A DNA stretch of 64,000 nucleotides from Candidatus Eiseniibacteriota bacterium (GTDB lineage Bacteria > Orphanbacterota > Orphanbacteria > Orphanbacterales > Orphanbacteraceae): positions 50,320-114,319 of the forward strand of contig JBDROZ010000111.1 of NCBI GenBank assembly GCA_043809585.1, in the 5' to 3' direction. A model generated the notes under the pieces. It ran no database searches and was not told the origin of the DNA. It was given only the letters and a program-made list of their open reading frames with translations. This document shows positions 643-42,350 of this stretch, piece after piece. The translations under genes and the position numbers were made by a program. Position 1 is the first letter of the stretch. Every line of letters begins with the position of its first letter.

Positions 643-660
643 TCGAACCAGGCGGGCGCC

Positions 661-8245: not shown

Positions 8246-8263
8246 GGGTCCGAAGGGAGCGAA

Positions 8264-9499: not shown

Positions 9500-9501
9500 T
9501 C

Positions 9502-11424
9502 ATGTGCGGCATCTGCGGCATCCTCGCGCGCCGGCCGTCGCCGGAGGAGAAGACCTTCCTCCGGGCGATGAACGAGACCCTGCTCCACCGGGGGCCGGAC
9601 GGAGCCGGTCTATTCGCCGATCCGGAGTCGGGCGCCTTCCTCGGCCACACACGCCTGGCCATCATCGACCTCTCCGACGCCGCGGCCCAGCCGATGAGCG
9701 ACGAGACGGGCGGGCTCCGCCTCGTCTGCAACGGGGAGATCTACAACCACCGGGAACTCAGGAGAGAACTCGAGGGAAGAGGCCACCGCTTCCGTTCGGG
9801 GAGCGATTCGGAGGTGATCCTTCATCTCTACGAGGAAGAGGGGCCGGACCTGACGAAGCGGCTCGACGGCATTTTCGCCTTCGCCCTCTGGGACCGCCGG
9901 GAAGGCCGGATGTTCCTCGCCCGGGACCCCCTCGGCGTCAAACCCCTCTACTACCTCGAGAAGAACGGGAGGTTCCTCTTCGGGTCCTCCCCCAAGGCGA
10001 TACTCGCCCATCCCGAGGTGACGGCGGAAGCGTCCGTCGAGGGGATCTGGCACTACCTCACCTTCAATTGCGCCCCGGCGCCGCACACTCTTTTCAAGGG
10101 GATCCGGAAGCTTCCCGCCGGTTCCCGCCTCGTGGCGAACGGGAAGGGAGCGGCTCGTGTGGAGCCGTACTGGGACCTTCCGTCGAAAGCCCCGGATCCC
10201 CCCGACGGAAACGATGTCCGGTCGCTCCGGGAGCTCTTCCGGCGGGCCACGGAGAAGAGGATGATGGCCGACGTTCCGGTCGGAGCGTTTCTCTCGGGGG
10301 GCGTCGACTCGACCATCAACGTGGGGGTCATGGTTCCTCTCTCCGGGCCGCGGCTCCGCACCTTCGCTCTCGGCTACGAACGGGCCGCCGTCAACGAGCT
10401 CCCCTTCGCCCGGCTCGCCGCCGACCGTTTCGGCACGGACCACGAAGAGCTCGTCGTGGGCGAGGGTGATCTCGAGGAGGCCCTCGACCCCTGGATGGAG
10501 CACATGGACGACCCGGTCGGCGCGCCGTCGGTCCTCTCCGGTTTCCTCCTCGCCCGCCGCGCCCGGGAGGCGGCCGTGCCGGTGGTGCAGGTGGGGGAGG
10601 GGGCGGACGAACTCTTCTTCGGCTACGGGCCGAACCGGCGCGCCCTCCGGGTCCACTCCCTCCTCTGGCGCCACTACGAGAGGCTCCCCCTCGTTCTCCG
10701 CCGTGCCGCCTACGCCGCGCTCCGCCGGCCCCTCGCGGGTCTCGGGGATCCGACGCTCGAGCACTCCCTCGACGGAACCTTCCGGGAGTGCCTCCGCCGG
10801 AGCGCCTCCGGGCGGCCGGTCGGGTGGGGATTCGCGAACGTCTTTTCCGACTCGGCGAAGGAGGGCCTCTTCTCGAACCCGGAACACCGCCGCGATTCGT
10901 TCACCCCCCTCGAGCCGTTCTTCGAGAGAATCGCCGCCGAAGGGTGGGACCTCGCCCGCTCCCTCACGTACCTCGACCTCAAGGTGGGCCTGGCCGAGCG
11001 GCTCCTCATGCGGGTGGACAAGACCAACATGGCCTTCGCCGTCGAGGCAAGGGTCCCCTTTCTCGACCGGGCCCTCGCCGAGTTCGCTTTTCATCTCCCC
11101 CTTGGGCGCTTGCTGCCCGGCGGAGGGAAGGCGATCCTCCGGGAGGCCTTCGGGGACCTGCTTCCGCCGGAAATCAGGGAGCGGAAGAAGATGGGGTTCC
11201 CCACGCCGGCGTCCGTCTTCCTCGGGCCCCGTCTCCTCCCTCTCGTGGAGGAGCGCGTTCGCCGGTCGAGCCTGATGGAGCGGGGTCTCCTGGTGAAGGA
11301 ACGGGTGGACGGACTTTTCCTTCGCTTCCGCGCGGGGGCGGAGGCGAACCTCTATCCGATCTGGACCCTCTTCGTTCTCGGCCTCTGGCACGATCGCTGG
11401 ATCGCGGGGAGGAGGGGGTCATGA
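9502..11424 (+). CDS. asnB: Asparagine synthase (glutamine-hydrolysing) family amidotransferase, EPS-locus type
   Basis: N-terminal MCGICGI class-II glutamine amidotransferase nucleophile; SGGVDS PP-loop; 640 aa. Confidence 0.85.
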   Translation: MCGICGILARRPSPEEKTFLRAMNETLLHRGPDGAGLFADPESGAFLGHTRLAIIDLSDAAAQPMSDETGGLRLVCNGEIYNHRELRRELEGRGHRFRSGSDSEVILHLYEEEGPDLTKRLDGIFAFALWDRREGRMFLARDPLGVKPLYYLEKNGRFLFGSSPKAILAHPEVTAEASVEGIWHYLTFNCAPAPHTLFKGIRKLPAGSRLVANGKGAARVEPYWDLPSKAPDPPDGNDVRSLRELFRRATEKRMMADVPVGAFLSGGVDSTINVGVMVPLSGPRLRTFALGYERAAVNELPFARLAADRFGTDHEELVVGEGDLEEALDPWMEHMDDPVGAPSVLSGFLLARRAREAAVPVVQVGEGADELFFGYGPNRRALRVHSLLWRHYERLPLVLRRAAYAALRRPLAGLGDPTLEHSLDGTFRECLRRSASGRPVGWGFANVFSDSAKEGLFSNPEHRRDSFTPLEPFFERIAAEGWDLARSLTYLDLKVGLAERLLMRVDKTNMAFAVEARVPFLDRALAEFAFHLPLGRLLPGGGKAILREAFGDLLPPEIRERKKMGFPTPASVFLGPRLLPLVEERVRRSSLMERGLLVKERVDGLFLRFRAGAEANLYPIWTLFVLGLWHDRWIAGRRGS

Positions 11425-12527
11425 GCGCCGGACATCCCACGGTTCTTCACTTCCTCTCCGGCGACCAGTGGGCGGGGGCCGAGGTCCAGGCGTGCCACCT
11501 CATGGCCGCCCTCGCCGCCCGCGGGCGCTACCGGCCCCGGGCCATCCTCCTCTGCGACGGCCTGCCCGCCCGGCGGCTCCGAGAGTCGGGTATCCCGGTC
11601 GCGGTGATCGACGAGGGGGGCCGTTCCTTTCTCTCCCTCGTCCGGGAGGCCCGGGCCCTCGTCCGGGATTGGTCCCCCTCCCTGGTCCACGGGCACGGCT
11701 ACAAGGAGAACCTCCTCGCCTGGCTCTCCAGCCGGGGCCTTCCGGTGAAGAGAGTCCGCACTCAGCACGGCACGCCCTATCCGGAAGGCTCCTTCCGTCA
11801 TCGCCTTCACTACCGTCTCGACCGGGCGGCGGCCCGGCGCGCCTTCGTCTTCACCATCGCCGTCTCCGAAGGGGTGGCCGCCGAAGTGGGGCGGTTTCTC
11901 CCCGCGGAGAAGATCGTTCTCGTCCGGAACGGAGTCCCCGCGCCCCCCGAAGAAGAGACGGCCCCGGAAGCTTCTCTTCCGCGGGGCGCCCCGGCGGTCG
12001 TCTCCGTGGGACGCCTCTCGGCGGAGAAGCGCTTCGACCGTCTGATCGACGCCGTCGCCCGCCTCACGGACGAGTTTCCGGAACTCCGGCTCGTTCTCGT
12101 CGGCGACGGACCGGAGAGGGCCCCCCTCGAGGACCGGGCCCGAGAACTCCTCGGCGGGCGGGCGACGTTCACGGGTTTTCAGGAATCGATAGGCCCTTGG
12201 ATCCGGAGGGGCACGGTGTACGCCCTCTCCTCCGACCGTGAGGGAATGCCCATGAGCGTTCTCGAAGCGCTTGCCCGGGGGGCCGCCGTCGCGGCGGTTC
12301 CGGTCGGCGGCGTTCCGGAGGTGGTGCGCACGGGGCGGACCGGAGTTCTCGCCGAAGCGGTGAGCGCCCCCGCCCTCGCCGACGCGATCGCGGTTCTGCT
12401 CCGGGATCCGGACCTCCGGGCCCGCGTCGGCGGCGAAGGCCGGGAGCTCGTCCGCCGCGAGTTTTCGATCGACCGGACCGCGGGGGAGACGGAGGCCGTG
12501 TACGCCCTCGCGGAGGGGGCGCGATGA
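11421..12527 (+). CDS. GT4 (GT-B fold) glycosyltransferase
   Basis: ATGA overlap at 11421. C-terminal EX7E-like region SDREGMPMSVLEALARG. Confidence 0.8.
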   Translation: MSAGHPTVLHFLSGDQWAGAEVQACHLMAALAARGRYRPRAILLCDGLPARRLRESGIPVAVIDEGGRSFLSLVREARALVRDWSPSLVHGHGYKENLLAWLSSRGLPVKRVRTQHGTPYPEGSFRHRLHYRLDRAAARRAFVFTIAVSEGVAAEVGRFLPAEKIVLVRNGVPAPPEEETAPEASLPRGAPAVVSVGRLSAEKRFDRLIDAVARLTDEFPELRLVLVGDGPERAPLEDRARELLGGRATFTGFQESIGPWIRRGTVYALSSDREGMPMSVLEALARGAAVAAVPVGGVPEVVRTGRTGVLAEAVSAPALADAIAVLLRDPDLRARVGGEGRELVRREFSIDRTAGETEAVYALAEGAR

Positions 12528-13771
12528 AGATCCTCTGGGTTTCTCACTTCGTGCCGTGGCCGCCGAAGGGGGGGAACCTCCAACGGTCGTACTATCTGAT
12601 GCGCGCCCTCGCCGAGGAGGCCACCGTCGACCTGATCTCTTTTCACCGCCGCGCCTCCCGGGCGGATGGCGATCTCCCCGGCGCCCGGGCGGCGCTCCGC
12701 GAGATCTGCCGGGACGTGGAGATCTTCCCCATCCCGAACGAGGCGTCCCGGCTCCGGTTCGCCGCCGGACTCGCCCGAAACCTGGCGGAGCGGGAGCCGT
12801 ACACGGTGATGGAACTCCGATCCCGCCCCTTCCGGCAGTCCCTCGCCCGGCGGCTCCGGGAAGGGGCGTACGACGCCGTTCATTTCGACACGATCGATCT
12901 CGCTCCCTACCGGCCTCTCGCCGGGGAGGGGCCCGCGGTCCTGAATCATCACAACATCGAGTCCCTCCTCTTTCGCCGCCGCGCCCCCTTCGAAAGGAAC
13001 CCCCTTGCGGGGAGGTACGTCGCGCTCCAGAGCCGCAGGCTCGCGCGGGCCGAGCGCCGCTGGTACCGCGCCTTCGACATGAACCTCTTCGTCTCCGAAG
13101 CGGACCGGGAGGCCGCGAGGGAGGAAGCGGGGCCCTTCGATGCCGAGGTCGTTCCGAACGGCGTCGACACCGAGTACTACCGGCCCGGGACGGAGGGGGA
13201 GGCCGACCGGATCGTTTGGGTCGGCGGGCTCGGTTGGTTCCCGAACCGGGACGCCGTGGCCCATCTCCTCGCCGACATCTGGCCCCGGATCCGCGCCGCC
13301 CGTCCCGAGGCGGAGCTCGACTTGGTCGGCGCGGCCCCCCGCCCCCTTCGCCCGGCGGGGTGGGATGGGCCGGGTGTCAAGGTCCACGGTTTCGTCGACG
13401 ACCTCCGTCCGCTCGTGGCGAGGGCCAAGGTCTTCGTCGTGCCGATCCGCGTGGGGGGGGGGACACGCCTCAAGATTCTCGACGCCATGGCGATGGGAAA
13501 GGCGATCGTCTCGACCACCATCGGCGCCGAGGGCCTCGACGGGAGCGGGGGAGAGGAGTGGATCACGGCCGATGCTCCGGAGGAGTTTGCCCGCGCCGTG
13601 GTCCGCCTTCTCGGCGACGGCGACGCGCGGCGCCGGGTCGGCGCCGCCGCCCGGAAGGGGGCGGAGCGGCGCTACGCCTGGAGAATCGTGGGGGAGAAGT
13701 TCAGGCGTGTATACCGGGATCTTGTCCGCGCGGGCGGGGAGGTCCGGGGGGAGGAAGAGAGAGGTGAGTGA
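12524..13771 (+). CDS. GT4 (GT-B fold) glycosyltransferase, EPS-locus sugar transferase type
   Basis: ATGA overlap at 12524; GT-B C-terminal domain; 415 aa. Confidence 0.75.
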   Translation: MKILWVSHFVPWPPKGGNLQRSYYLMRALAEEATVDLISFHRRASRADGDLPGARAALREICRDVEIFPIPNEASRLRFAAGLARNLAEREPYTVMELRSRPFRQSLARRLREGAYDAVHFDTIDLAPYRPLAGEGPAVLNHHNIESLLFRRRAPFERNPLAGRYVALQSRRLARAERRWYRAFDMNLFVSEADREAAREEAGPFDAEVVPNGVDTEYYRPGTEGEADRIVWVGGLGWFPNRDAVAHLLADIWPRIRAARPEAELDLVGAAPRPLRPAGWDGPGVKVHGFVDDLRPLVARAKVFVVPIRVGGGTRLKILDAMAMGKAIVSTTIGAEGLDGSGGEEWITADAPEEFARAVVRLLGDGDARRRVGAAARKGAERRYAWRIVGEKFRRVYRDLVRAGGEVRGEEERGE

Positions 13772-14861
13772 TCCCGTGCGCGTGACCGTCGTCTCCGGGG
13801 CCCGGCCGAATCTCATGAAAGTGGCCCCCGTGATCCGCGCCCTACGCGGGCGGCCGCGCTACCGCGTCCATCTACTCCACACGGGCCAGCACTATGACGA
13901 CGACATGTCGCTCCGTTTCTTTCGGGACCTGGGACTCGAGAGGCCCGACACGGATCTCGAGGTCGGCTCCCTCTCCCACGCCAGGCAGACCGCCGCGGTC
14001 ATGGAGCGCTTCGACGCTTTTCTCGACCGGGAACCGGCGGACCTCGTCCTCGTGGTGGGGGATGTGAACTCGACCATCGCCTGCGCTCTCACCGCGGTCA
14101 AACGGGGGATCCGGGTCGGCCACGTGGAGGCGGGGCTCCGAAGCTACGACCGGGAGATGCCGGAAGAGATCAACCGGGTTCTGACCGACGCGATCTCCCA
14201 TCTCCTCTTCATCACCGAGAAGAGCGCCGACGAGAACCTCCGCAAAGAGGGGGTCCCGGGGGACCGGATCCACTTCGTCGGCAACGTCATGGTCGACTCC
14301 CTCCTCGCCAACCGGGAGAAGGCGCTCCGGGCGGAGCGGGCGACGTCCCGAGGCGCGGGGGCCTACGGACTCGTCACCCTTCACCGTCCGTCCAACGTGG
14401 ACCGTCCCGAGGACCTCGAGAGGTTGACCTCGATCCTCATACGGGCGGCGGCGGAAATCCCCCTCGTCTTCCCGGTCCATCCGCGCACGAAAGAGCGTCT
14501 CGAACGTTTCGGCCTCCGGGATCGTCTCCACCGGGCGGAGGGGATCGATCTCCTCCCCCCCCAGGGGTACCTCTCCTTCCTTCGCCTCCTTGCGGAGTCG
14601 AAGGTGGTCCTCACCGATTCGGGGGGCATCCAGGAGGAGACCACCGCCCTCGGCATTCCCTGCGCCACGCTCCGTCAAAACACCGAGCGGCCGGTCACGG
14701 TCGAGTCGGGAACGAACACGGTGTGCGGATCCGATCCCGACCTCGTGCTCGGCGTGGTGAAGAACGCGATCGGGGGGAGGGGGAAGGCGGGACGGATCCC
14801 GGAGAAATGGGACGGCCGCGCGGCCGAGCGGATCGCCGACGTTCTCGACCGGGAAATCTAG
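13764..14861 (+). CDS. wecB: UDP-N-acetylglucosamine 2-epimerase (non-hydrolysing)
   Basis: N-terminal VTVVSGARPNLMKVAPV and HTGQHYD motifs, then GDVNSTIA and HVEAGLRS. The start is GTG at about 13764 or 13776. Confidence 0.85.
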   Translation: MSDPVRVTVVSGARPNLMKVAPVIRALRGRPRYRVHLLHTGQHYDDDMSLRFFRDLGLERPDTDLEVGSLSHARQTAAVMERFDAFLDREPADLVLVVGDVNSTIACALTAVKRGIRVGHVEAGLRSYDREMPEEINRVLTDAISHLLFITEKSADENLRKEGVPGDRIHFVGNVMVDSLLANREKALRAERATSRGAGAYGLVTLHRPSNVDRPEDLERLTSILIRAAAEIPLVFPVHPRTKERLERFGLRDRLHRAEGIDLLPPQGYLSFLRLLAESKVVLTDSGGIQEETTALGIPCATLRQNTERPVTVESGTNTVCGSDPDLVLGVVKNAIGGRGKAGRIPEKWDGRAAERIADVLDREI

Positions 14862-15051
14862 CCTTGATCCTCCACAAAATCTCGGCTCAAAACGCTGACG
14901 CTCGCATGATAGCACGCCATCTGCGACAGGGCGCGGCATTCACCAATGCTCACATATCGTTGGATATGCTCTGCTTGGTGAATTCCCCGCGCTGCCGCAT
15001 CTGGCGCACTCTCACGCGTTTGCTCTCGAGATTTTATGGAGAATCAAGGCT
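14860..15051. repeat. Imperfect inverted repeat with about 36-bp arms flanking a roughly 120-bp lower-GC core, between convergent genes; MITE-like element or bidirectional terminator
   Basis: Left arm agccttgatcctccacaaaatctcggctcaaaacgc; the right arm is its near reverse complement, gcgtttgctctcgagattttatggagaatcaaggct. The arms abut the wecB stop and overlap the last codons of the minus-strand GT4 gene. Confidence 0.6.
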
Positions 15052-16279
15052 GGCCGGAGGAGAGCTTCTCCCGGATCAGGTTCTCGATCCGGAGAACGAC
15101 ACGGTTCCAGTCGTGGAGGCGCGCCGTCTCGATCCGCCGTCGCCGGTCCTCTTCGGTTCCCGGTTCGACCGCCTCCCGGAGGGCCGCCACCCAATCGCCG
15201 GTCGTCAGCGCCGTGCGCACGGTCCCGGCGAATCCGGAGAAGCAGGGGAGGGGGACGGACACGACCGGGATGCCCGCCGCCTGGTACTCGTGGAGCTTCA
15301 GGGGATATCGGTGCACGCTCGCGTCGTCCACGCCGTAGGGGAGGATCCCCACGTCGAAGGAGGCGACGTAGGCGGGGAGATCATCCATCTCCTTCGCGCC
15401 GAGGATGTGCACGTTCGGTAGACCGGCCCACTCCTCGAAGAGATCCCGCGTTTCGCGGCTCACGACGAGAACGGGACCGATGAAGACGAATTGGGCGTGA
15501 GGCAGCCGGACCGCCGCCTCCCGGAGGATGTGAAAATCGAGCTTGTCGCAAATGCGGCCCAGGTAGCCGACCCGGGGACCGGGGGGGACCGCCGCGAGAT
15601 CGTCGGGGACGGGAAGATCACTCCCCGCCGCCGCCGAGAAGAGATCGAAATCGACTCCGTTCGGAACGAAGTGAACGGGCCGGCCGGGCCCGGACTTCCG
15701 CTCCGCCAGGGAGGGGGACGACGCGATCGCCACATCCGTCCTCGCGAGCAGGTCCCCCTCCTCCCTCTGCACGCGCTCCCGATTCGCCCCCGCATACCCC
15801 GAATACTCGTCGAGCATATGGTAGAGGACGAGCTTCTCCCCGAGTCCCCCGACATAGGGGGAGCGGAACTTCGGGTGGATGATGTAGAGGATCGGCCTCT
15901 TCCCGCCGAGGGAATCGACGGCGCGGCGAAGCGCCCGGAGACGCATCGATTCGATCGACCTCACGAGGCGCGGCGGCTTGTAGAAGTTGGGGAGCAGGCG
16001 GGAGAAACGGTAAATATAGAGGTGGTCCTCCCTGTGGCGGAGGCCCCGCCGCCCGAGCTCGGGGGCGAACCGGCTTCCGAAGACCTCGGTCCGCTCGAGG
16101 GGGGGGGGCACGTAGATCACACGGTTCCGGTAGGCGAGCCGCCGGAGCACCTGATTCCAGGTCTGGGTTCCCGGCGTCCATTCGGTCCAGCCGAAGCAGA
16201 CGATCGTCTCTCCCCGCATCCGGTCGGCGCGAGGATCCGGCGCCGAAGGAAGACCGTCGTCCCACGACGGGCCGCTCAT
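15044..16279 (-). CDS. GT4 (GT-B fold) glycosyltransferase
   Basis: Start ATG at 16279 overlaps the upstream stop (ATGA on the minus strand). C-terminal KLHEYQAAGIPVVS region; the ORF track's longer N-terminal extension is disregarded. Confidence 0.7.
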   Translation of the reverse strand: MSGPSWDDGLPSAPDPRADRMRGETIVCFGWTEWTPGTQTWNQVLRRLAYRNRVIYVPPPLERTEVFGSRFAPELGRRGLRHREDHLYIYRFSRLLPNFYKPPRLVRSIESMRLRALRRAVDSLGGKRPILYIIHPKFRSPYVGGLGEKLVLYHMLDEYSGYAGANRERVQREEGDLLARTDVAIASSPSLAERKSGPGRPVHFVPNGVDFDLFSAAAGSDLPVPDDLAAVPPGPRVGYLGRICDKLDFHILREAAVRLPHAQFVFIGPVLVVSRETRDLFEEWAGLPNVHILGAKEMDDLPAYVASFDVGILPYGVDDASVHRYPLKLHEYQAAGIPVVSVPLPCFSGFAGTVRTALTTGDWVAALREAVEPGTEEDRRRRIETARLHDWNRVVLRIENLIREKLSSGQP

Positions 16280-17568
16280 CTTCTCGCCTCCTCGAGGAGC
16301 GCCGCGAGCCGCTCGGTGAGCCGCCGGAAATCGAACCGCTCCGACCGCCGCGGGGGAGGAGGGAGAGACCGCCCGGCCGCGCGGCGGAGGAGTTCCTTCA
16401 CGCGCTCCGGTTCCCCCGGCCCCACGATCCAACCGAGACCCTCGCGGCGGACGATGCTCTCCGTGGCGCCGCCGCTCGTGAGGGCGAGGATCGGCCTGCC
16501 GACGGCGATGTACTCGTAGAGCTTCCGCGGAATCTGGAGGTCCGTTCCGGTTTGGATGAGCAGGAGAAGGTCGGAGGAGGCGAGGAGGCGGATCGCCTCG
16601 TCCCTCGGCACCTTCGCCTCGAACGTCACGATCCGGGAGAGCCGGTGTGATTGAAGAAACTCCTTGTAACGCTCTTCACCGGCCGCGCTCCCGATGAAGG
16701 TGAGCCGGACGTCGTCCTCGCCGATCGCCCCCTCCTCGATCAGCTCGGAGAGAGCCCGGAGAATCGGCGTCGGGTCTCTCCGCCCGTAGAGAGAGCCGGC
16801 GTGGAGGATCCGGACCGGGCCTCCGGTGCGAACCGGGGCTTCGGGCACGTCCTCCTCGGGGTCGTACCCGTTGGTGATGGTGACGAACTTCGACCGGTCC
16901 CCTTCGTAACGCCTCTCGAAGTCGCTCCGCAGTTCCTCCGTGTTGGCGATGATCCGGGTCGCCCCGTCCACCACCCGCGCCTCGAGCCACCGGTCGAGGG
17001 GATCGAGGAAGGGCGTGCTCCGAGCGGGGGAGAAGTCGTTGGAGATCCAGGGATCCCGGAAGTCGGCGACAAAGGGGAGGTCCCGGCACCGCGCGGCGAC
17101 GAGAGCGGCGACATGGGCGCTCGCGGGGGGGGATGAGCTGTAGACCACGTCGATGTTCTCCGCCCGGAGCGCCTCCATCGCCGCCGCGCCGATCCAGCCC
17201 ATCTGCCGGTCGGGTACGGCGAAGAAATCGGAGACCCAGTCCCTCCACGTCGCGCATTCCTCGGGCCCCCCGGCGGCCGCGAAGTCGCCGTTCGATCCCC
17301 GCCCTCTCCCCGCGAGACGGTTCCGGATCCGGAGGGCCGCCCGGAGCGGGTCCGCCGCCGCCGCCCGGAGGACGCGAGTCTCCGGGGGAAGGCCGAGGAG
17401 AGGCGCGTCATCGAGGACCCCCCCGTCGCCCGTCGAATCGGGGCGCACGGTGAGAACCACGGGACGCCATCCGAAGCGGGGGAGATACCGGGCGAACTGG
17501 AGGGACCGGTACATGCCGCTCGTCGTCAGCGGAGGAAAGTGGTACGCGATGAGAAGGAGGGTGCGCAT
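16276..17568 (-). CDS. GT4 (GT-B fold) glycosyltransferase
   Basis: Start MRTLLLIAYHFPP at 17568, 430 aa, preceded by an AGGAAG-type RBS. The ORF track merges it into an 1149-aa high-GC run-through. Confidence 0.75.
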   Translation of the reverse strand: MRTLLLIAYHFPPLTTSGMYRSLQFARYLPRFGWRPVVLTVRPDSTGDGGVLDDAPLLGLPPETRVLRAAAADPLRAALRIRNRLAGRGRGSNGDFAAAGGPEECATWRDWVSDFFAVPDRQMGWIGAAAMEALRAENIDVVYSSSPPASAHVAALVAARCRDLPFVADFRDPWISNDFSPARSTPFLDPLDRWLEARVVDGATRIIANTEELRSDFERRYEGDRSKFVTITNGYDPEEDVPEAPVRTGGPVRILHAGSLYGRRDPTPILRALSELIEEGAIGEDDVRLTFIGSAAGEERYKEFLQSHRLSRIVTFEAKVPRDEAIRLLASSDLLLLIQTGTDLQIPRKLYEYIAVGRPILALTSGGATESIVRREGLGWIVGPGEPERVKELLRRAAGRSLPPPPRRSERFDFRRLTERLAALLEEARR

Positions 17569-17751
17569 GGTCTTCCTGTTGGGAGATGATCTTCCCCGGG
17601 CGGGCCCTCTCCGGGCGACTGCCGTCCGTCCTTTCCTTCTGTAACTTATCCCCAATCCGAATCGACCGGAACAGGAAAATACCGGGGCCGGGCTTCTCGC
17701 CGCCGCCCGTCTCCTGTACACTCCGAAGGTTCGGGATTCCGGGGAGGGACC

Positions 17752-19764
17752 ATGAGGAAAGCTTTCGCGCTGCTCTTCGTTCTGATCGCGGCGGCCTACG
17801 CCGGGTCGTTCCGCGCCGGCTGGCACCTGGACGACAACCGCACCATCGTGAGGAACGAGGCGATCGACGACCTGCCCCGGGCCTTCTCCCGTCTCGTCAC
17901 GGCGAACCGCGGACTCGGCGATCTCACGTTCACCCTGAATCACCGGATCGCCGGAGACGATCCCTTCCTCTACCACGGGGTGAACCTGGCGATTCACTTC
18001 GCCTGCGGCATCTTGATCTACCTTCTCGTCTCCGGGCTTCGCCCGAAGGACCGGAGAACCCGCCGGGCCGCCTTCGCCGCGGCCGCCCTCTTCCTCGCCC
18101 ATCCTCTCGCCACCGGCTCGGTGACCTACGTGGTCCAGCGGTACACCTCCCTGGCCACGCTGTTCTATCTCCTGTCGGTGTGGCTCTACCGCCGGGGCGC
18201 GGTGCGGGGGGACCGGACGGCGGCGGTCCTTTCCGTCCTGGCCGCCCTCGCGGGCGCCCGGTCGAAAGAGATCGTCCTCACCCTGCCCGCCGCCCTCTTG
18301 CTCCTCGAGTGGCTCTTTCCGACCATGCGCACCCGGAGGCGCTACCTCCGCGCGCTTCCCCACGCCGCGGTCGTCGCCCTGATTCCGCTCACCCTCGTCA
18401 CCGCCCGGATCGGGCTCGGCGAATCGCTCGCCGACGCCATGACCCGGTCCAGCCGCGAGACCGGGGTCATCGGGCGCTCGTCTTATGCGATCACCGAGGT
18501 GCACGTGGTGACGGACTACCTCCGCCTCCTCTTCCTGCCCCGGGGACTCACCATCGATCATGACGTGCCGGTCCGGACCGACCCCTTCGAGGCGGCGACC
18601 CTTCTGAAGGGGATCTTTCTCGCCGCCTGCATCGGCGCGGGGTTCGCCCTCCGGAGGTGGCGACCCCTGGCGGCCTTCGGCATCCTCTGGTTCTTTCTCG
18701 CCCTCTCGGTCGAGTCGTCGCTCCTGCCGATCCGGGACGTCATGTTCGAGCACCGCACCTATCTCCCGTCCGTCGGATTCTTCTCGGCTCTCGCCGCGCT
18801 GCTCCCCGATCCCCGTGGGCGGCCCCGCCTCGCGGCCGGGGCGCTCGCCGCCGTTCTGGTTCTCCTCTCGGCCCTCACCTTCGAGCGAAACCGGGTTTGG
18901 AGGAGCGAGATCTCTCTCTGGAGCGACGCGGTCCGAAAGGCGCCTGCCAAGGCGAGGCCGTGGGCGAACCTCGGCTACGCCCGCCTCGAAGGGGGGGAGA
19001 GGGAGGGGGCCGCGGCCGCTCTCGAAGAGGCGGTTCGCCTCGGACCGGTCTTTCCCGAAGATCTGGTCACCCTGGCGGAAGCGAGATACGGCCTCGGACG
19101 CTACCGGGAGGCGGAGGAGGCCCTCCGCGAGGCGATTCGAATCCTCCCGCGTTATGCCCGGGCCCACCGGAACCTCGCCCTCCTTCTCCGGGAGACCGGG
19201 CGGCCCGACGAGGCCCTCCGGGAGGCGGAGCGGGCGGTGGAAGTCGATCCGGCCTATGAGGAGGGGAGACGATTCCTTGCGGTCCTTCGCGCCGAGCGGG
19301 AGGCGGGGGCCGGAAAGGGGATTCAGGAAGAGACCGGAGCCCTCGCCGCCGCCCTCGAGGGGGACGGAAAAGAGGCTCTCCGCCGAATGAAAACGTGGGA
19401 GGCCGACGAGGGCCCGAAAGGCCCGGATGACGCCGTTCGGATTGCCCGGGCACTCCATGAGGGAGGAATGCCGGAGGAGGCCCTCGAGGCCCTCCTGATC
19501 GCCGGCCGTATGTTTCCCGGCGATGCCCGGTTCCCCTACTACGCCGGGGCGATTCTCTATCAACGGGGTGATCCGGCGGAGGCCTTGCCGAGAATCGAAG
19601 AATCCCTCGAGCGGGACCCCTCGGACGGGGACGCCCGCCTCCTCCTCGCCCGCGCGCTGATCGACCTGAATCAGCCGGCCCGCGCCCGAATCGAACTCGA
19701 ACGAATTCTCGGGGAAACCCCTCAACTAACTGAAGCAAAAGAGCTTTTGAGTAGACTCCCCTGA
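17752..19764 (+). CDS. TMTC-like GT-C membrane protein (PMT-like N-terminal domain + DUF1736-like segment + C-terminal TPR repeats); putative protein O-glycosyltransferase
   Basis: About 9 N-terminal TM helices; a WHLDDNR acidic loop motif; a DUF1736-like EHRTYLPSVGFF segment; the C-terminal 300 or so aa form TPR-like helical repeats. Confidence 0.55.
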   Translation: MRKAFALLFVLIAAAYAGSFRAGWHLDDNRTIVRNEAIDDLPRAFSRLVTANRGLGDLTFTLNHRIAGDDPFLYHGVNLAIHFACGILIYLLVSGLRPKDRRTRRAAFAAAALFLAHPLATGSVTYVVQRYTSLATLFYLLSVWLYRRGAVRGDRTAAVLSVLAALAGARSKEIVLTLPAALLLLEWLFPTMRTRRRYLRALPHAAVVALIPLTLVTARIGLGESLADAMTRSSRETGVIGRSSYAITEVHVVTDYLRLLFLPRGLTIDHDVPVRTDPFEAATLLKGIFLAACIGAGFALRRWRPLAAFGILWFFLALSVESSLLPIRDVMFEHRTYLPSVGFFSALAALLPDPRGRPRLAAGALAAVLVLLSALTFERNRVWRSEISLWSDAVRKAPAKARPWANLGYARLEGGEREGAAAALEEAVRLGPVFPEDLVTLAEARYGLGRYREAEEALREAIRILPRYARAHRNLALLLRETGRPDEALREAERAVEVDPAYEEGRRFLAVLRAEREAGAGKGIQEETGALAAALEGDGKEALRRMKTWEADEGPKGPDDAVRIARALHEGGMPEEALEALLIAGRMFPGDARFPYYAGAILYQRGDPAEALPRIEESLERDPSDGDARLLLARALIDLNQPARARIELERILGETPQLTEAKELLSRLP

Positions 19765-19957
19765 TTTCGGCGAGGGGGGATGTCGATCGGGCCGAGCCGC
19801 CCCTCATCGGAGGGTGGCCCCCCCGATCGCGCGGCATGTTTCTGACCACCTGATCACAGATTGAACACCTCGAGCGCCCAACTATGAGGCACCTTCCCTC
19901 CTCCTCGGCGCGAGTATTATAACGCAGCCACTTGCACTATCTTGCAGCGGACGATTC

Positions 19958-22900
19958 ATGGTCCCCCCTGGGCATCGCGGCACGGCCTTTGCTGTTAGGC
20001 TGGGTCCGGGGGGGAGGTCCCCCGGTTTCGTCCCGAAACTCCATCACCCCAGACACGACGGGCCGCCCCCGCGGCCGGAACCGAGAGTGATCTTGAAGGT
20101 ACGGCCCATCGCCGGAACTCGTCTTCGTCTCCGCGGAGGGCCCGCGGGGATCCTGGTTCTTCTTCTCGCGGCGCCGGCGGCCCTCGGGGCCGACCTGACC
20201 CTTCTCTGGACCGCTCCCGCGGAGAACGGCGCGGCCGGGGGGCCCGCAACGGCCTACGATCTGCGCTATTCGAACGCGCCCGTCGGGGGGGACACGCTCG
20301 GGTGGTGGAACGGCGCCGTTCCCGTGCCGAACGAACCGGTCCCCGGCACGCCGGGGTCGCCCCAATCGCTCGTCGTGAGCGGCCTCGACCCGGCGACCAC
20401 CTACTACTTCGCCCTCCGCTCCGCCGACGAGGAGGCGAACGTCTCCCCCTTCTCCAACGTGTTCGAATTCGCCACCGGGGACACCACGGGCGGGGACCCG
20501 GGCGGGCTCGTCATCAGCGGCGTGACCGTGGACTCGATCGGCGGCGATTCGGCTTTCGTCGCGTGGTCGACGAATCGTGACGCACGGGGGTTGGTTCGGT
20601 ACGGACCGGACGGCGGATACGGGAGCGAGACCGAAACGGAGACCGATTCGACGATCCTCCACGGCGTCTGGATCGGCGGACTCGGAGAAGGAACCCTCGT
20701 CCACTACCAGGTCGTCTCCTTCGCGGGGGCCGACCGTGACTCCACCGCCGACGCCGCTTTCACCACCGCCGACCCGCCCCCGGCCCGGCCGGCCGGGTTC
20801 GACCACGTGGACGGGGAAGGGGAGGTGACACTTCTCTGGCAGGCGAACCAGGAGCCCGACCTCGACGGCTACCGGGTCTACTGGGAGGCGAGGGACCGCG
20901 CCGACGACGGCCGCCTTCTGGACGAGGACTTCGAGACGAGTCCCGTAGGGGCCCCGCCTTCCGGGTGGGCCATCGAGACGGACGCCGGGACCCCGGCGAG
21001 CGTCTTCTTCGTGCAGAGCGATCCGGGGCGGGGCCGCGCCGTGCGTGCGACCCCGAACGGAGCGGGCTACCGGGCCCGCTATGCCCCTTCGCCGTCCCCC
21101 GCCTGGGGGGACGTGGAGTGGCGCGGCGCCTTCCGTTTCTCCACCGGTGCCGGGGCGGACGTGGAGATCCGGAGGGGGGGAGGTGCCGCCTATCGGATCG
21201 GCTTCGCTCCGGACGGAGCCCCCCGGGCGGAGAAAGTCGGCGGCGGATCGCTCGTCTCCCTCGGCTCCCTCCCCACCTCGTGCGGCCCCGGCGGGTGGGT
21301 GCGATTCCGGATCAGCGCGTGGAACCGCCCCGAAGGCGTCCTTCTCCACGCCCTCTTCTGGCCCGAGGGAGAGGCCGAGCCGCTCCGCCCGACCCTGGCG
21401 GTTCTCGACACGGGGAGCCTCCCGGCCGCCTCCGTAGCCCTTCGCGCCTCCGGAACCGGGGAGGTCTGGTTCGACGATCTCGCGGTGACCGCCCTTCCCC
21501 CTTCCACGAACGAGGTCGATCGCTCCCTGTTCGTTCAATGGACCCACGGGGGCCTTTCCGCCGACTCCTCCTATCACTACCGATTGGAAGCGGTCGACGG
21601 CAACGGCTCCGCAGGCCTCCCCGCCGGGCCTCTCATCGGATACCCCGCCGGCGAAGAGGGGACGGACGTCACGCCCCCCGCGGCCATCGCCGATCTGGCG
21701 GCCCTTCCCGGAAACGGCTTCGGCGAGGCGCGGCTCACGTGGACCGCCACGGGGGACGACTCGACCTCGGGCCGGGCCCTCTCGTACGATCTCCGGTGGT
21801 CCCCCCAGCCGATCAATCCGGAGGTGTGGCCCGCGGGCACCACGAAGCTCTACACCGGAACCCCCCTTCCTGCCGGAGGAGGGGAGACCTACACCTTCGC
21901 CGGCCTGCCGGCGGGCTCTACGGTCTGGTTCGCCCTGACCGCCCAGGACGACGGGGGCAACGAATCGGATCTCTCGAACATCGTCCCCCTCGACCTTCCC
22001 GCCGACACGATCGCGCCGGTCCTCACGAACATCCGGACCGAGAACGTCACGGACGGAAGCGCCGAGGTCGCATGGACGACGAACGAGTCGTCGGACGGCG
22101 AGGTCCGGTACGGTCTGACCGACTCGTACGAGATCGGACTGGTGGGGGAGGAATCGGGAGGGACGTCTCACCGGGTCACGCTCTCCGGCCTCGCGCCGGT
22201 GACGCTCTATCACTACCGCGTCCGCTCCACCGACGGGGCGGGCAACGCATCCGAGTCGGGAGACAGGACCTTCGTCACCGCCGAGGAGGCGGTCGGCGTC
22301 CCCGTCATCTCTCATCTGAACATCGCCGCCGTCTCGGACACGGAAGCGGTGATCGAGTTCATCACCGACATCTCCGCCGTCGGATCGATCGACTACGGGG
22401 CGGACACGACCTACGGGGAGACGGTCTCCGAATCGGCGTACGGAACCGCCCACTCCCTCCGGCTCGCCCCGCTGACCGCGGGCGCGGACTACCACTTCCG
22501 GGCCCGGGCGACCGGCGAGGAAGGGGGGACGGCGGTCACGGAGGATCAGACGCTCACCACCTCGTTCGAGCAGGATCCTCCGCTCTTCAGCCAGATCGAG
22601 GCGACCGAGATCGGCCCGTCGGGGGTCACCATCCGGTGGCGCACGAACGAGGGGGCGACGGAGCGGGTCGAGTACGGGCCGACCGGGAGCTACGGAAGCT
22701 GGTCGGCCGGGGACACGACGTACACCTACGACCACGAGGAGCGCCTCGACGGCCTCGCGTCCTCCACCACGTTCCACTACCGCGTCCACGGGCGGGACCG
22801 GTACGGCAACCGCGCCTTCTCCGAGGACCGGACATTCACGACCGCCGCCGCGGGCGACCACCGGGCCCCGCTGCTCGCGGGGGTCGAAGCGGACAGCGTC

Positions 22901-25192
22901 TGGCCCGGGGGGGCGAGAATCGTCTGGACATCGGACGAGCCGGCGGACGGCCAGGTCGAGTACGGGCAGGATCTCCCCTACGACCGGGCGACTCCGCTCG
23001 ACGAGACCCTCGCCGAAGGGCACGCCGTCACGATCCGGGGCCTCGAACCGTCGACGACGTACCACTTCCGGGTCCTCTCCCGGGACGGGAGCGGAAATCT
23101 CGCGGGATCGGGGGACCGCACCTTCACGACGACGCCGCCGGACGACCTCGACTCCCCGGGAATCTACGGGATCGTCCTCGAGGGCCCGACGGCCTCGGGA
23201 ATCACGGTCGCGTGGCGAACCGACCGGGCGGCCTACGGCCAGGTCGAGTACGGCCCCGCCCCGGGGTTCGGCTCCCTTTCGGCGCCGGAGACGGCGGCCG
23301 ACACGCTCCATTCGATCCGCATCGAGGGACTGACCGCGGGGGTGACCTTCCGGCTGCGGGTGCTCGCATGGGCAGAGGGGGGACCGGTCGTCCTCTCGCC
23401 GGACACGATCTTCGTTCTCGACGGCGGAGGGGACGTCGACCCTCCGGGAATCGTGGCCATCGCCGTCACCGGGGTCGGCGAATCGTCGGCGACCATCGAA
23501 TGGACCACCGACGAGCCGGCGGAGGGGCAGATCGAATACGGGAGCGGCGACGGGAGCGGTTACGACCGGGCGACGCCGTGGGACGGTTCCCTCGGGACGG
23601 CCCACACGGCGCGCATCGAAGGACTCGCGCCCCGGACGACTTACCGATTTCGGCTCTTCGCGAGAGACGGCGCCGGCAACCCGGTCTATTCGGAAGAGCA
23701 CGGGTTCGCGACGACGGGCGCCGTGGACTCGCTCCCGCCGACGGTGAGCGGCCTGACCATCGCCGATCTCGGCGACGGCGTTCGTCTCGCCTGGAGCACC
23801 GACGAGGGGGCGTGGGGGCACGTGGACTACGGGCTCGACAGCACGCTCGGCCTCGAAACGGAGACCGGCCCGGGCCCCGGCGTGCTCCATCAATTCGACG
23901 TGATCGGCCTCGCGGCGGGCGTGCCGTTCTACTTCCGGGCCGCGGCCGAGGACGCCGCGGGCAACGCCGGATACTCGGAGATCCTCGCCCACACGGTGGG
24001 GGCGGCGCCGGACACGACGTCGCCGGTCTTCACCGGAGAGGTCGTCGTCCAACCGGGCGTCCGGGATGCGACAATCCTCTGGGCCACGGAGGGGCCTTGC
24101 CGGGGAACGCTGGAGTACGGCACCGACCCGCACGACCTCGATCACTCCGTCTCGGAGCCGGACTACACCCTCGTCCACCGGATCGTCGTCGGCGGCCTGG
24201 AGCCGGAGACCACTTATCACTTCCGCCTCCGCTGCGTCGACCTTTCGGGGTACGAGACGGTCCGGAGCGGCGAGTCCTTCACCACGGAAAGGGAGACATC
24301 GGCGTTCCCCCCCACGATCGTCTCGCTGACTCTCTCGAACCGGACCCCCGAGGGCCTCCACATCGCCTGGGAGACGGACCGGCAGGCGGTGGGACAGGTC
24401 GAGTTCGGGGAAGGGGAGCAGATGGCCCATGCCACGGCCATGTCCTCGGTCTTCACGAGGGAGCATATCGACCGGCTCGGCGGACTGACGCCGGGAAAGG
24501 CATACACGTACCGGATCCGGGGGATGTCTCCCGAGGGGCTCTTCTTCTTCTCCGCGCCCGACACGTTCCGCACGCCCGAGGACCGGACCGGGCCGCCACC
24601 GCCTCACATGAAGGAGGCGAGCGAGATCGACGAGGGGATTCAGATCGCCTGGCGGCCGGAGGAGGGGGAGGTCGCTCATTCGCTGGCCCTCCACCGGCGC
24701 TTCCTGCCGGGGGGGCAGTGGAAGACGATCTGGGTCGCCACGGGCCGGGAGACGACGTACGTGGACCCGGTCGCGCCCGTGGACCTCACGGGAGTCGAGA
24801 AGGCCCAATACTACCTGGAGGCTTTCGACGCCTACGGGAACGGCACGTCCGGGGACACGATCGACGTGTTGATCTTAATGCACGCGGCCGAAGGGGTCCC
24901 CCTCTTTCGACTGCTCCCGAACCGGCCGAATCCCTTCAACCCGACCACGACGATCCCCTTCGAGCTCCCTTCCTCCCCTTCCGAACCGCACCTGGTGACG
25001 ATCACGGTCTACAACGTGGCGGGGGAACGGCTGAAGGTGCTTCTCGACAAGATCCTCACGGCGGGAACCAAGAGCCAGACAACCTGGGACGGCACGGACT
25101 GGCGCGGAGAACCGGTCGCGTCGGGCGTCTACTACTACCGCTTCACCGCCGGCTCCTACTCCGAGACGAAACGGATGACCCTGATTCGGTAG
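19958..25192 (+). CDS. Giant secreted protein: signal peptide, about 14 tandem FN3-like beta-sandwich modules, lectin-like insert, C-terminal T9SS sorting domain
   Basis: Repeated modules of about 100 aa share the pattern W.T.E...G.VEYG....YG......H...L.GL.P.TTYH[FY]RV.S.DGAGN. The C-terminus (LLPNRPNPFNPTTTIPF...GVYYYRF...KRMTLIR) matches the T9SS Por_Secre_tail. The true start may be the GTG/TTG near 20087-20093, just before the signal peptide. Confidence 0.8.
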   Translation: MVPPGHRGTAFAVRLGPGGRSPGFVPKLHHPRHDGPPPRPEPRVILKVRPIAGTRLRLRGGPAGILVLLLAAPAALGADLTLLWTAPAENGAAGGPATAYDLRYSNAPVGGDTLGWWNGAVPVPNEPVPGTPGSPQSLVVSGLDPATTYYFALRSADEEANVSPFSNVFEFATGDTTGGDPGGLVISGVTVDSIGGDSAFVAWSTNRDARGLVRYGPDGGYGSETETETDSTILHGVWIGGLGEGTLVHYQVVSFAGADRDSTADAAFTTADPPPARPAGFDHVDGEGEVTLLWQANQEPDLDGYRVYWEARDRADDGRLLDEDFETSPVGAPPSGWAIETDAGTPASVFFVQSDPGRGRAVRATPNGAGYRARYAPSPSPAWGDVEWRGAFRFSTGAGADVEIRRGGGAAYRIGFAPDGAPRAEKVGGGSLVSLGSLPTSCGPGGWVRFRISAWNRPEGVLLHALFWPEGEAEPLRPTLAVLDTGSLPAASVALRASGTGEVWFDDLAVTALPPSTNEVDRSLFVQWTHGGLSADSSYHYRLEAVDGNGSAGLPAGPLIGYPAGEEGTDVTPPAAIADLAALPGNGFGEARLTWTATGDDSTSGRALSYDLRWSPQPINPEVWPAGTTKLYTGTPLPAGGGETYTFAGLPAGSTVWFALTAQDDGGNESDLSNIVPLDLPADTIAPVLTNIRTENVTDGSAEVAWTTNESSDGEVRYGLTDSYEIGLVGEESGGTSHRVTLSGLAPVTLYHYRVRSTDGAGNASESGDRTFVTAEEAVGVPVISHLNIAAVSDTEAVIEFITDISAVGSIDYGADTTYGETVSESAYGTAHSLRLAPLTAGADYHFRARATGEEGGTAVTEDQTLTTSFEQDPPLFSQIEATEIGPSGVTIRWRTNEGATERVEYGPTGSYGSWSAGDTTYTYDHEERLDGLASSTTFHYRVHGRDRYGNRAFSEDRTFTTAAAGDHRAPLLAGVEADSVWPGGARIVWTSDEPADGQVEYGQDLPYDRATPLDETLAEGHAVTIRGLEPSTTYHFRVLSRDGSGNLAGSGDRTFTTTPPDDLDSPGIYGIVLEGPTASGITVAWRTDRAAYGQVEYGPAPGFGSLSAPETAADTLHSIRIEGLTAGVTFRLRVLAWAEGGPVVLSPDTIFVLDGGGDVDPPGIVAIAVTGVGESSATIEWTTDEPAEGQIEYGSGDGSGYDRATPWDGSLGTAHTARIEGLAPRTTYRFRLFARDGAGNPVYSEEHGFATTGAVDSLPPTVSGLTIADLGDGVRLAWSTDEGAWGHVDYGLDSTLGLETETGPGPGVLHQFDVIGLAAGVPFYFRAAAEDAAGNAGYSEILAHTVGAAPDTTSPVFTGEVVVQPGVRDATILWATEGPCRGTLEYGTDPHDLDHSVSEPDYTLVHRIVVGGLEPETTYHFRLRCVDLSGYETVRSGESFTTERETSAFPPTIVSLTLSNRTPEGLHIAWETDRQAVGQVEFGEGEQMAHATAMSSVFTREHIDRLGGLTPGKAYTYRIRGMSPEGLFFFSAPDTFRTPEDRTGPPPPHMKEASEIDEGIQIAWRPEEGEVAHSLALHRRFLPGGQWKTIWVATGRETTYVDPVAPVDLTGVEKAQYYLEAFDAYGNGTSGDTIDVLILMHAAEGVPLFRLLPNRPNPFNPTTTIPFELPSSPSEPHLVTITVYNVAGERLKVLLDKILTAGTKSQTTWDGTDWRGEPVASGVYYYRFTAGSYSETKRMTLIR

Positions 25193-41892: not shown

Positions 41893-42350
41893 TGGGTGTG
41901 GTGCTCACCCCGAAGTGGCTATCTTCCTCGGACTCCTCTTCTGCACCCTGGAATGGTGATCTTCGTGTGCGGTATCCCCCCTGAGGGGGACAGGGTCCGC
42001 TGAGGTCAGACCGATATCTTCCGAGCCGGAGGCTCGGGCGGAACCAGTCCCCCGCTCACTCCGAAGCTGGTGGGCGAGGTTAGATTCCGGATATCCCGAA
42101 GTGGCTATCTTCCTCGGGCTCCTTTTCTGCACCCTGGAGCAGTCGTGTTCGCGCTCAGTATCCGTCCGGAGGGCGGTGGGGCGGGGGGACGGCTCCGGGA
42201 GGGATGCGGGTTAGACTAGGACGCTCGTCGTGCTGCGGGAGCAAATCCTCCCATTCTCCGGCCTCGTAGAGGAGGCGTTTCGGAAGGCGGCAACAGCTCC
42301 CCGGTGATGACCCGATCCCTCCCGGAGCCGTCTCCCCGTCCCGCCGATGA
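41893..42350. repeat. Composite repeat locus: family B (inverted, plus a partial tandem duplicate) followed by family C
   Basis: 41930-42075 is the reverse complement of 28889-29020. 42085-42150 is a partial direct duplicate of 41893-41950. 42185-42350 matches 28690-28860. Confidence 0.65.

Follow-up and report, generated by a model that had tools for sequence, protein, structure and literature searches.

We mapped a 64-kb window of DNA from a Candidatus Eiseniibacteriota bacterium (contig JBDROZ010000111.1, positions 50,320 to 114,319 of the forward strand; GC content about 68%) by a codon-usage gene call together with Pfam and NCBIfam searches; coordinates below are those of the window. The open reading frame (ORF) at 17752-19764 on the + strand encodes a 670-aa protein with a membrane domain and a tetratricopeptide repeat (TPR) array, and profile comparisons indicate that it is very probably a glycosyltransferase of the GT-C class belonging to the TMTC family. 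The next gene on the same strand (20087-25192) encodes a giant protein built from fibronectin type III (FN3)-like modules with a sorting domain of the T9SS (type IX secretion system) kind. As the best explanation, which we advance tentatively, the TMTC-like protein is a periplasm-facing enzyme of the TMTC lineage that depends on a polyprenyl-phosphate sugar, and the giant is its best candidate acceptor. A first-pass annotation, made from the sequence without database searches, had described the two ORFs as such an enzyme-substrate pair; both are real genes on the strand claimed, and its TMTC-like diagnosis agrees with the profile-profile homology shown below. Animal TMTCs are disease genes whose products O-mannosylate cadherins. 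A 100% match to the window protein at NCBI, from an Eisenbacteria metagenome-assembled genome, is labelled only 'tetratricopeptide repeat protein', databases name other family members just 'TPR repeat protein', and the name of its relatives at JGI, derived from KEGG Orthology (KO), is 'protein O-mannosyl-transferase'.

The catalytic membrane domain of the TMTC-like protein (residues 1-398, 17752-18945) has a GT-C fold with about 11 transmembrane (TM) helices and is followed by a C-terminal TPR solenoid of about 8 repeats (18934-19761), predicted to be periplasmic. The long TPR array noted in the first-pass annotation, at residues ~395-669, is matched by several Pfam TPR families (TPR_19, 86 bits; also TPR_2, TPR_14 and others), and the AF2 model of the protein, with a mean predicted local distance difference test (pLDDT) score of 92.9, has about 8 TPR helix pairs after the last TM helix. 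Family alignments of 65 sequences (A1) and 28 sequences (A2) were built, and an alignment of human and Drosophila TMTC1-4 came from the supplementary material to Eisenhaber et al. 2021 (PMC7801869). When the membrane domain of A2 was compared with TMTC1-4 by hhalign, the two matched with a probability of 99.96% (E 5.9e-39) over 382 columns, with query positions 8-409 of 426 aligned to template positions 5-432 of 432 and all 11 TM segments included. In this alignment D27/D28, an acidic pair in the predicted first periplasmic loop (codons 17830-17835), fall on TMTC motif M1 (FVxDD), K172-E173-x3-T177 on M4 (KE[T/Q]xxT), D269 on the Asp of M5 (DW), and E333-H-R335-x-Y337, a putative phosphate-binding loop (E333-H-R-T-Y337, codons 18748-18762), on M7 (AERVLY). 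These four motifs and the role of the DD pair were defined for the TMTCs, in models of which the loop-1 DD, KExxxT, the loop-4 Asp and E(H)RxY bind a metal ion and the lipid-phosphate donor (PMC7801869). By homology to the TMTCs of that study, we infer an N-in topology, in which the active site and the TPR domain would both lie in the periplasm.

The aligned positions are strongly conserved among the bacterial proteins. In A2, D27, D28, E333, H334, R335, L338 and P339 are invariant; in A1, D27 is invariant and D28 is at least 90% conserved. K172-E173...T177, D269 and E333-H-R335-x-Y337, all aligned with TMTC positions, are invariant or at least 90% conserved. The two segments that the first-pass annotation had singled out, WHLDDNR (residues 24-30) with its acidic loop motif and EHRTYLPS at the start of EHRTYLPSVGFF (residues 333-344), are thus both present and among the most conserved columns of the family. 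The second had been called DUF1736-like, a label that is wrong because the segment is motif M7 (ERxxY) in the TM9-10 loop, whereas the DUF1736 segment is the TM7-8 loop.

The metazoan TMTC1-4 (CAZy GT105), which are O-mannosyltransferases of the endoplasmic reticulum (ER) for the EC domains of cadherins, have the same order of an 11-TM GT-C domain and then a TPR array, and they have FxFDD, RxxxLTFxLNY, GYHxxNxxxH, HPxxTxAV...R, KExxxT, the loop-4 Asp and E(R/H)RxYxPSxG in common with the bacterial family. They differ in that the bacterial protein would reside in the inner membrane and periplasm and not in the ER, and its donor must be a bacterial polyprenyl phosphate sugar and not dolichyl phosphate mannose. 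Compared to the fungal and actinobacterial PMT/POMT enzymes (GT39), the TMTC-like protein has no MIR domain, no PMT or PMT_2 match and no sequence-level match of the family profile to any chain in the PDB, and it carries the TPR array in the place of MIR as the likely acceptor module. A GT-C domain combined with a TPR domain is also found in TMEM260 (GT117), an O-mannosyltransferase for IPT Ig-like domains, whose luminal TPR domain clasps an unfolded beta-strand of the beta-sandwich domain and is both required and enough to recruit the acceptor peptide (bioRxiv 10.64898/2026.03.17.711096). TMEM260 could, by analogy, offer a mechanistic model for the handling of FN3 modules by a TPR/GT-C enzyme, although it belongs to a different family in which an extra Rossmann-like domain bears the catalytic base.

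Enzymes of the ArnC/PgfS/AglJ class are polyprenyl-phosphate monosaccharide synthases that feed GT-C enzymes. Two adjacent GT2 genes of this kind are present in the window (661-1626 and 1623-2567, +); their best NCBIfam matches are to ArnC (147.6 and 90.7 bits), then to PgfS, AglJ and Dol-P-hexose transferase, all under the equivalog cutoffs, and by this likeness they could be the suppliers of a polyprenyl-phosphate-sugar donor. In the mechanism that we propose, an ArnC/PgfS-like GT2 would load a monosaccharide onto undecaprenyl phosphate (Und-P) at the cytoplasmic face, the lipid-linked sugar would be flipped to the periplasmic side, and the TMTC-like enzyme would transfer the sugar to Ser/Thr of a Sec-exported polypeptide held extended by the periplasmic TPR domain, as in TMEM260. 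In the Eisenbacteria lineage, the adjacent giant would be the best candidate acceptor, modified in the periplasm before export by the T9SS. An Und-P-sugar is the presumed donor, and the capture of an extended Ser/Thr polypeptide by the TPRs would follow the precedent of TMEM260. It is fairly probable that the acceptor of the TMTC-like enzyme is a protein; that the giant is a physiological acceptor is a further step, which we hold to be less likely than not.

A comparable arrangement is known from streptococci, in which a Pgf pathway of GT-A and GT-C enzymes glycosylates adhesins encoded in the same cluster (PMC12041528). The streptococcal Pgf and GtrB/PgtC2 systems resemble the proposed one in that a GT-A polyprenyl-phosphate-sugar synthase and a GT-C transferase O-glycosylate Ser/Thr-rich extracytoplasmic segments, and the window GT2s match the PgfS model. 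They differ in that PgfM1 and PgtC2 are YfhO-type GT-Cs of Gram-positive bacteria without TPRs, and their acceptors are disordered regions and not beta-sandwich repeats.

We found that the true start of the giant is about 20087, where a GTG codon is followed by a clear Sec signal peptide (20087-20191, VILKVRPIAGTRLRLRGGPAGILVLLLAAPAALGA, cleavage before DL, read from the sequence), and not 19958, the start of the mechanical ORF; the codon score, Pfam matches and orthologues define the gene as 20087-25192. With this start, the 1744 aa and the distance of about 190 bp given in the first-pass annotation are corrected to about 1,701 aa and a spacer of about 320 nt to the TMTC-like gene. The protein does consist of tandem Ig/FN3-like modules, with 13 found by a hidden Markov model of the protein's own modules (self-HMM) where about 14 had been counted; 10 are strong and 3 are weak, and they are of the purple-acid-phosphatase-N (PAP-N) type (Pfam Pur_ac_phosph_N seven times, 226 bits; fn3, 158 bits). 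Nine PAP-N-type modules stand in tandem at residues 642-1498 (22010-24580) according to the self-HMM and the module alignment. Short linkers with many T, S and P residues, such as FTTTPPDDLDSPG, join the modules. Features of the giant and its gene that support it as an acceptor are the Sec signal peptide, the T/S/P-rich linkers and the lack of an intrinsic terminator between the two genes.

The C-terminal domain (CTD) of the giant (24920-25189) is a T9SS type-A / FlgD-Ig-like sorting domain. It scores 23.0 bits with TIGR04183, exactly at the cutoff of 23, and 23.2 bits with FlgD_ig, under the cutoff of 27, and the C-terminal 90 residues are 38-47% identical to three further window CTDs whose own scores with Por_Secre_tail or FlgD_ig are above threshold. 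Together with the signal peptide, these results support the earlier assignment of the giant to the T9SS-type proteins. The NxPNPFNP...SGxY...R pattern of this CTD is common to the giant, two tandem M28 peptidases (33593-35281 and 35410-37065, both -) and a 681-aa protein (61352-63397, +). No core T9SS gene was identified within the window. A side observation concerns the Bacteroidota general O-glycosylation sequon D-[ST]-[AILVMT], which occurs 17 times in the giant and 7.4 ± 2.6 times in shuffled sequence; the sequons or the linkers could be targets of a different system, of the PglL/Wzy_C type.

Gene order was compared in seven distinct Eisenbacteria contigs, in which the TMTC-like orthologues are 47-72% identical, and in 78 loci of family members from other phyla. 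All seven contigs keep the order of glycan cluster, divergent GT4 gene(s), TMTC-like gene and giant orthologue, the latter encoding 1,383-1,782 aa directly downstream of the TMTC-like gene. Two divergent GT4 genes are present in six of them and a single one in the contig L085. The right flank varies in three ways: purA lies there in four of the seven contigs, as it does in the window, L002 has a beta-helix protein, and L084 has DUF4412/BrnT. The gene content of the glycan cluster varies as well, with ATP-grasp, AsnB, GT4 and DAO genes that come and go, while its junction with the TMTC-like gene and the giant is kept. The persistence of the pair next to a changing right flank and a changing cluster suggests more than simple collinearity.

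We next consider transcription of the giant. An alignment of the spacers of orthologous loci, the sole means by which the element was found, uncovered a sigma-54-type -24/-12 consensus, GGCAC-N5-TTGC, at 19979-19992 (+), about 95 nt 5' of the GTG at 20087 and inside the ORF of the first-pass annotation. GG, TTGC and the N5 spacing are invariant in five aligned loci (the window, L001, L002, L003 and L084), with GGCAT in L084. The exact pattern occurs twice in the 64 kb, compared to 0.10 expected occurrences. A scan of 17400-20300 for sigma-70 promoters found nothing. The stretch from the TMTC-like gene to the giant showed no intrinsic terminator, which makes read-through into the giant possible. 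Three observations accompany these results. A TTATAAC/TTGTAAC-like block upstream of the sigma-54 element is partly conserved and may be an activator or integration host factor (IHF) site. In L003 and L004, a GAF-PAS sigma-54 activator is encoded a few genes downstream. The second perfect match in the window, TGGCAC-N5-TTGC at 42740-42754 (-), faces the region upstream of LytB/IspH (40643-41860, -), and no gene was called in 41900-42700.

On its left side, the TMTC-like gene borders a large set of glycan genes. Two GT4 genes (15044-17568, -; the start at 17568 was read from the sequence) are divergent from it, and beyond them lies a tightly packed operon (1-14861, +) headed by a partial gene for a BY-kinase-like P-loop protein (AAA_31/ParA-type, 1-642, +). 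This is followed by the two ArnC/PgfS-like GT2s, and then by genes of glycan biosynthesis of the Vim/Wbp and PEP-CTERM type (2564-14861, +), namely a VimA-type FemAB, an O-antigen-ligase-like+DegT fusion, a GT2, a CE4 deacetylase, an ATP-grasp protein, an AsnB-type amidotransferase, two GT4s and a UDP-GlcNAc 2-epimerase. The BY-kinase-like gene also points to a Wzc-type system of polysaccharide export or chain length control just upstream of the window. The fusion (3586-6159, +) is a single ORF of 857 aa with an O-antigen-ligase/Wzy_C-like membrane half (TIGR03097-like, residues 53-230) and a DegT aminotransferase half; the relatives L083 and L003 have the two parts as overlapping genes of 463-468 and 393 aa, and the ORF is either a real fusion or the result of a 1-nt assembly indel.

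Given this neighbourhood, a glycan is another possible acceptor of the TMTC-like enzyme. It would then add a periplasmic branch sugar from an Und-P-sugar to the polysaccharide or lipopolysaccharide (LPS)-like polymer made by the cluster, in the manner of ArnT or GtrC, with the TPR domain docked to the envelope or export machinery and the giant a mere neighbour. The position of the gene at the edge of the operon, divergent from GT4 gene(s) in all seven contigs, is in keeping with such a role; ArnC-like GT2s normally pair with glycan- or lipid A-modifying enzymes, and a BY-kinase-like gene at the start of a cluster is typical of loci for exported polysaccharides. Loci for PEP-CTERM-type exopolysaccharide (EPS) normally carry the large TPR protein PrsT, which is the top NCBIfam match of the TPR half, though at 70.8 bits it is far under the cutoff of 312. 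Pointing the other way, the TMTCs, the nearest relatives by sequence whose function has been established, O-mannosylate proteins, and where a TPR array is joined to a glycosyltransferase, as in TMTC, TMEM260 and OGT, it binds a polypeptide as acceptor. Moreover, none of the 78 loci from other phyla has Vim-like cluster genes, which indicates that the family is not tied to a Vim-like glycan; a Vim-like cluster was accordingly rejected as a family-wide neighbour. An ArnC-like GT2 lies within 10 kb of the family member in 8 of these 78 loci. Weighing these points, we consider a glycan acceptor unlikely.

The same cluster resembles loci that make the surface anchor of T9SS cargo. In Porphyromonas and Tannerella, a Wbp/Vim enzyme set builds the linking sugar for such cargo, and vimA-vimE-asnB clusters travel with protein-sorting systems (Veith et al., PMC7468200). 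The window operon has in common with Wbp/Vim and PEP-CTERM EPS loci the VimA-type FemAB, the CE4 deacetylase (VimE-like), the AsnB-type amidotransferase, DegT (PorR/WbpE-like), GT4s and a ligase-like protein. The giant could therefore be one more T9SS cargo protein beside the locus that makes its anchor glycan, and the TMTC-like enzyme would not be dedicated to it, but would either glycosylate other proteins, or many of them, as a general enzyme of the periplasm, or assist the glycan pathway. Consistent with this, the FemAB protein at 2564-3589, of VimA's family, passes the TIGR03019 cutoff (285.7 bits; cutoff 260.35), the CE4, AsnB-type, DegT, GT4, 2-epimerase and ligase-like components are all in the cluster, the CTD of the giant is of the same type as that of other cargo in the window, and the TMTC-like family has more than 100,000 representatives, mostly in phyla and contexts without an FN3 neighbour. 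It fits less well that WbpA, WbpB and WbpD of the Wbp core were not identified in the window and that other best NCBIfam matches in the cluster are below cutoff (TIGR03108, 425 vs 817 bits; the stp1/stp2 GT4s, 219 vs 317 and 119 vs 409; the O-ligase-like part, 44.8 vs 188). No TMTC-like component has been described for Wbp/Vim or PEP-CTERM systems, the constant wedging of the TMTC-like gene between the cluster and the giant is left unexplained, and the other T9SS cargo genes in the window are far from the cluster. We regard this explanation, too, as improbable overall.

For the reading in which the giant is the acceptor of the TMTC-like enzyme, a number of results are unfavourable. The resemblance of the cluster to anchor-glycan loci gives an independent reason for the position of the giant beside it. 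T9SS-type cargo is also dense here, with at least four such proteins among about 40 window genes, so that adjacency of the TMTC-like gene to one of them is not rare. In the lineage, conservation extends to the same degree over the entire block, glycan cluster included, and synteny therefore gives no means of telling protein and glycan apart as the acceptor. The giant is preceded by a conserved promoter of its own, which is probably activator-dependent judging from the sigma-54 element, and the spacer between the two genes is 320-580 nt across orthologous loci; enzyme and candidate substrate are neighbours and not an obligate operon. On the enzyme side, the NDFWG...SHKSY segment, with the SHKSY part of the loop-1 motif M2 (SHKSYRP), is deleted in the bacterial family, only R53 and the following LTFxLN block being kept in the hhalign alignment, and the Asp of M3 is not conserved. 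The Pfam matches that the first-pass annotation predicted were not obtained: neither the whole protein nor the N-terminal domain alone matched DUF1736 (PF08409), PMT (PF02366) or PMT_2 (PF13231) at E<=10, and there was no MIR match. The sole Pfam match on the membrane half is GtrII, at 22 bits and below the cutoff of 30, and among the 120 homologues listed PF08409 was found in none and no Pfam domain on the membrane half of any. The profile comparison with TMTC1-4 indicates that the Pfam test fails despite true TMTC homology.

The comparison with other phyla is likewise unfavourable. A homologue of the giant was found in none of the 78 loci, and a Pfam census of 72 downstream neighbours from other phyla contained no FN3 family; the recurrent neighbours were paralogues (9) and GT2 genes (4). 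The conserved synteny proposed for the TMTC-like gene and the FN3 giant thus holds in the seven related contigs and is absent from the 78 loci of other phyla, and the FN3-giant neighbour is confined to one lineage. An FN3/Ig neighbour as a family-wide feature was rejected, since the single FN3-module match among the 78 loci belongs to an unrelated giant in L007, a Nitrospirae metagenome-assembled genome (MAG). There, an ORF of more than 1,680 aa (6605-11650, +) with SBBP beta-propeller, HYR, CARDB and FN3-like domains lies about 190 nt downstream of a family member. The adjacency might even be without functional meaning, a gene order passed down in a single Eisenbacteria clade of family rank: this clade is the source of every positive synteny result, with no co-occurrence elsewhere, the giant has a separate promoter, and a search with its non-repetitive region gave 4 weak or partial matches and essentially no homologues outside the clade, though this search missed the known orthologues themselves. 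Against mere inheritance, at least two rearrangements have affected the right flank and the cluster content is variable, yet the pair and its junction are intact, and we judge this explanation the least probable of those considered.

Taken together, the claim of an enzyme-substrate pair is favoured by the TMTC homology, the conserved DD loop and the synteny in all seven contigs of the clade, and disfavoured by the missing Pfam matches and by the 78 loci from other phyla. The enzyme assignment stands, and the assignment of the substrate is still deduced from context. The pairing of the TMTC-like enzyme with the giant competes with a glycan-acceptor role and with the giant as cargo beside an anchor-glycan locus; we see it as a reasonable, lineage-specific and testable hypothesis, which is nevertheless rather less likely than not to be correct. 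More speculatively, and with lower confidence still, bacterial TMTC homologues may O-glycosylate specific acceptor proteins in the periplasm, using their TPR arms to catch beta-sandwich modules in an unfolded state; in Eisenbacteria, one such enzyme would add sugars to the FN3 modules or the linkers of a T9SS giant under sigma-54 control ahead of its export. If so, the locus would correspond in prokaryotes to the pathway by which animals O-mannosylate cadherins, and might be its evolutionary forerunner; it would also provide the first enzyme with its substrate for a family whose uncharacterised members number more than 100,000. In this locus, a bacterial homologue present as a single copy occurs together with two candidate synthases of the donor and a conserved protein as candidate acceptor, and the locus is therefore a compact system for heterologous reconstitution. 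Should the pairing hold, it would reveal what the family does among bacteria and by what means TPR/GT-C enzymes choose their beta-sandwich substrates; should it fail, the locus still connects an enzyme of the TMTC type with a surface-glycan pathway of Vim/PEP-CTERM-like character in a T9SS-bearing phylum.

The family itself is large. Members were found in at least 600 genome stretches, from Nitrospirota, Thermodesulfobacteriota, Omnitrophota, Bacteroidota, Planctomycetota, Geobacter, Anaeromyxobacter and others, and an exhaustive profile search returned 106,069 cluster representatives (50% identity clustering) at E<=1e-3 and 27,264 at E<=1e-30. The existence of a bacterial TMTC-type family is not new, and the window enzyme belongs to a common kind that has already been noted: Eisenhaber et al. 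2021 mentioned full-length prokaryotic TMTC homologues such as AMJ42_05695 of Deltaproteobacteria bacterium DG_8, of a type found with human TMTC3 (E 3e-47) and having a sugar-transferase domain followed by TPRs (PMC7801869). These are the same kind of protein, and the present family includes many members from Thermodesulfobacteriota and other delta-type bacteria. The earlier report was a remark only, without context analysis, substrate proposal or experiments; the present analysis adds a conserved neighbour specific to one lineage and candidates for the donor synthase. The first-pass annotation had held bacterial TMTC-like proteins to be uncharacterised; our literature search likewise found no paper characterising one, although their existence was already in print. 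Several family members occur in tandem head-to-tail arrays of paralogues, with 8 copies in L016 (Omnitrophota), 6 in L008 and 3 each in L018, L066 and L077. These arrays, in several phyla, suggest a diversification of acceptor specificity reminiscent of animal TMTC1-4 and fit a family whose acceptors diversify.

Downstream of the giant, purA, a class-V aminotransferase gene and EngB follow on the - strand from 25494 onward. The first-pass annotation had also proposed a mannose-centred envelope theme for the window. The GH92 gene on which this was based is present at 55490-58474 by Pfam, but it lies 30 kb off beside a solute symporter, and the candidate donor synthases are ArnC/PgfS-like with no match to a mannose-specific synthase; the theme was therefore dropped. 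Two further membrane proteins had been noted. The 664-aa protein at 52165-54159 (+) does have the membrane+TPR layout, with a multi-TM N-terminal half, a soluble middle and C-terminal TPRs, but it is not a member of the TMTC-like family (profile E>10, hhalign probability 0.2%) and was rejected as a paralogue of the 17752-19764 protein; its membrane half matches neither this family nor any Pfam model and is of uncharacterised architecture. The GT-C-like protein at 47627-49255 (-), which adjoins a sulfatase gene (46198-47526), was confirmed and is TMEM260-like (PF11028, DUF2723, 53.6 bits); it was also rejected as a paralogue, with an hhalign probability below 1% against the TMTC-like family. 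Of the three families of protein O-mannosyltransferases in metazoans, two, TMTC and TMEM260, thus have bacterial homologues in the window.

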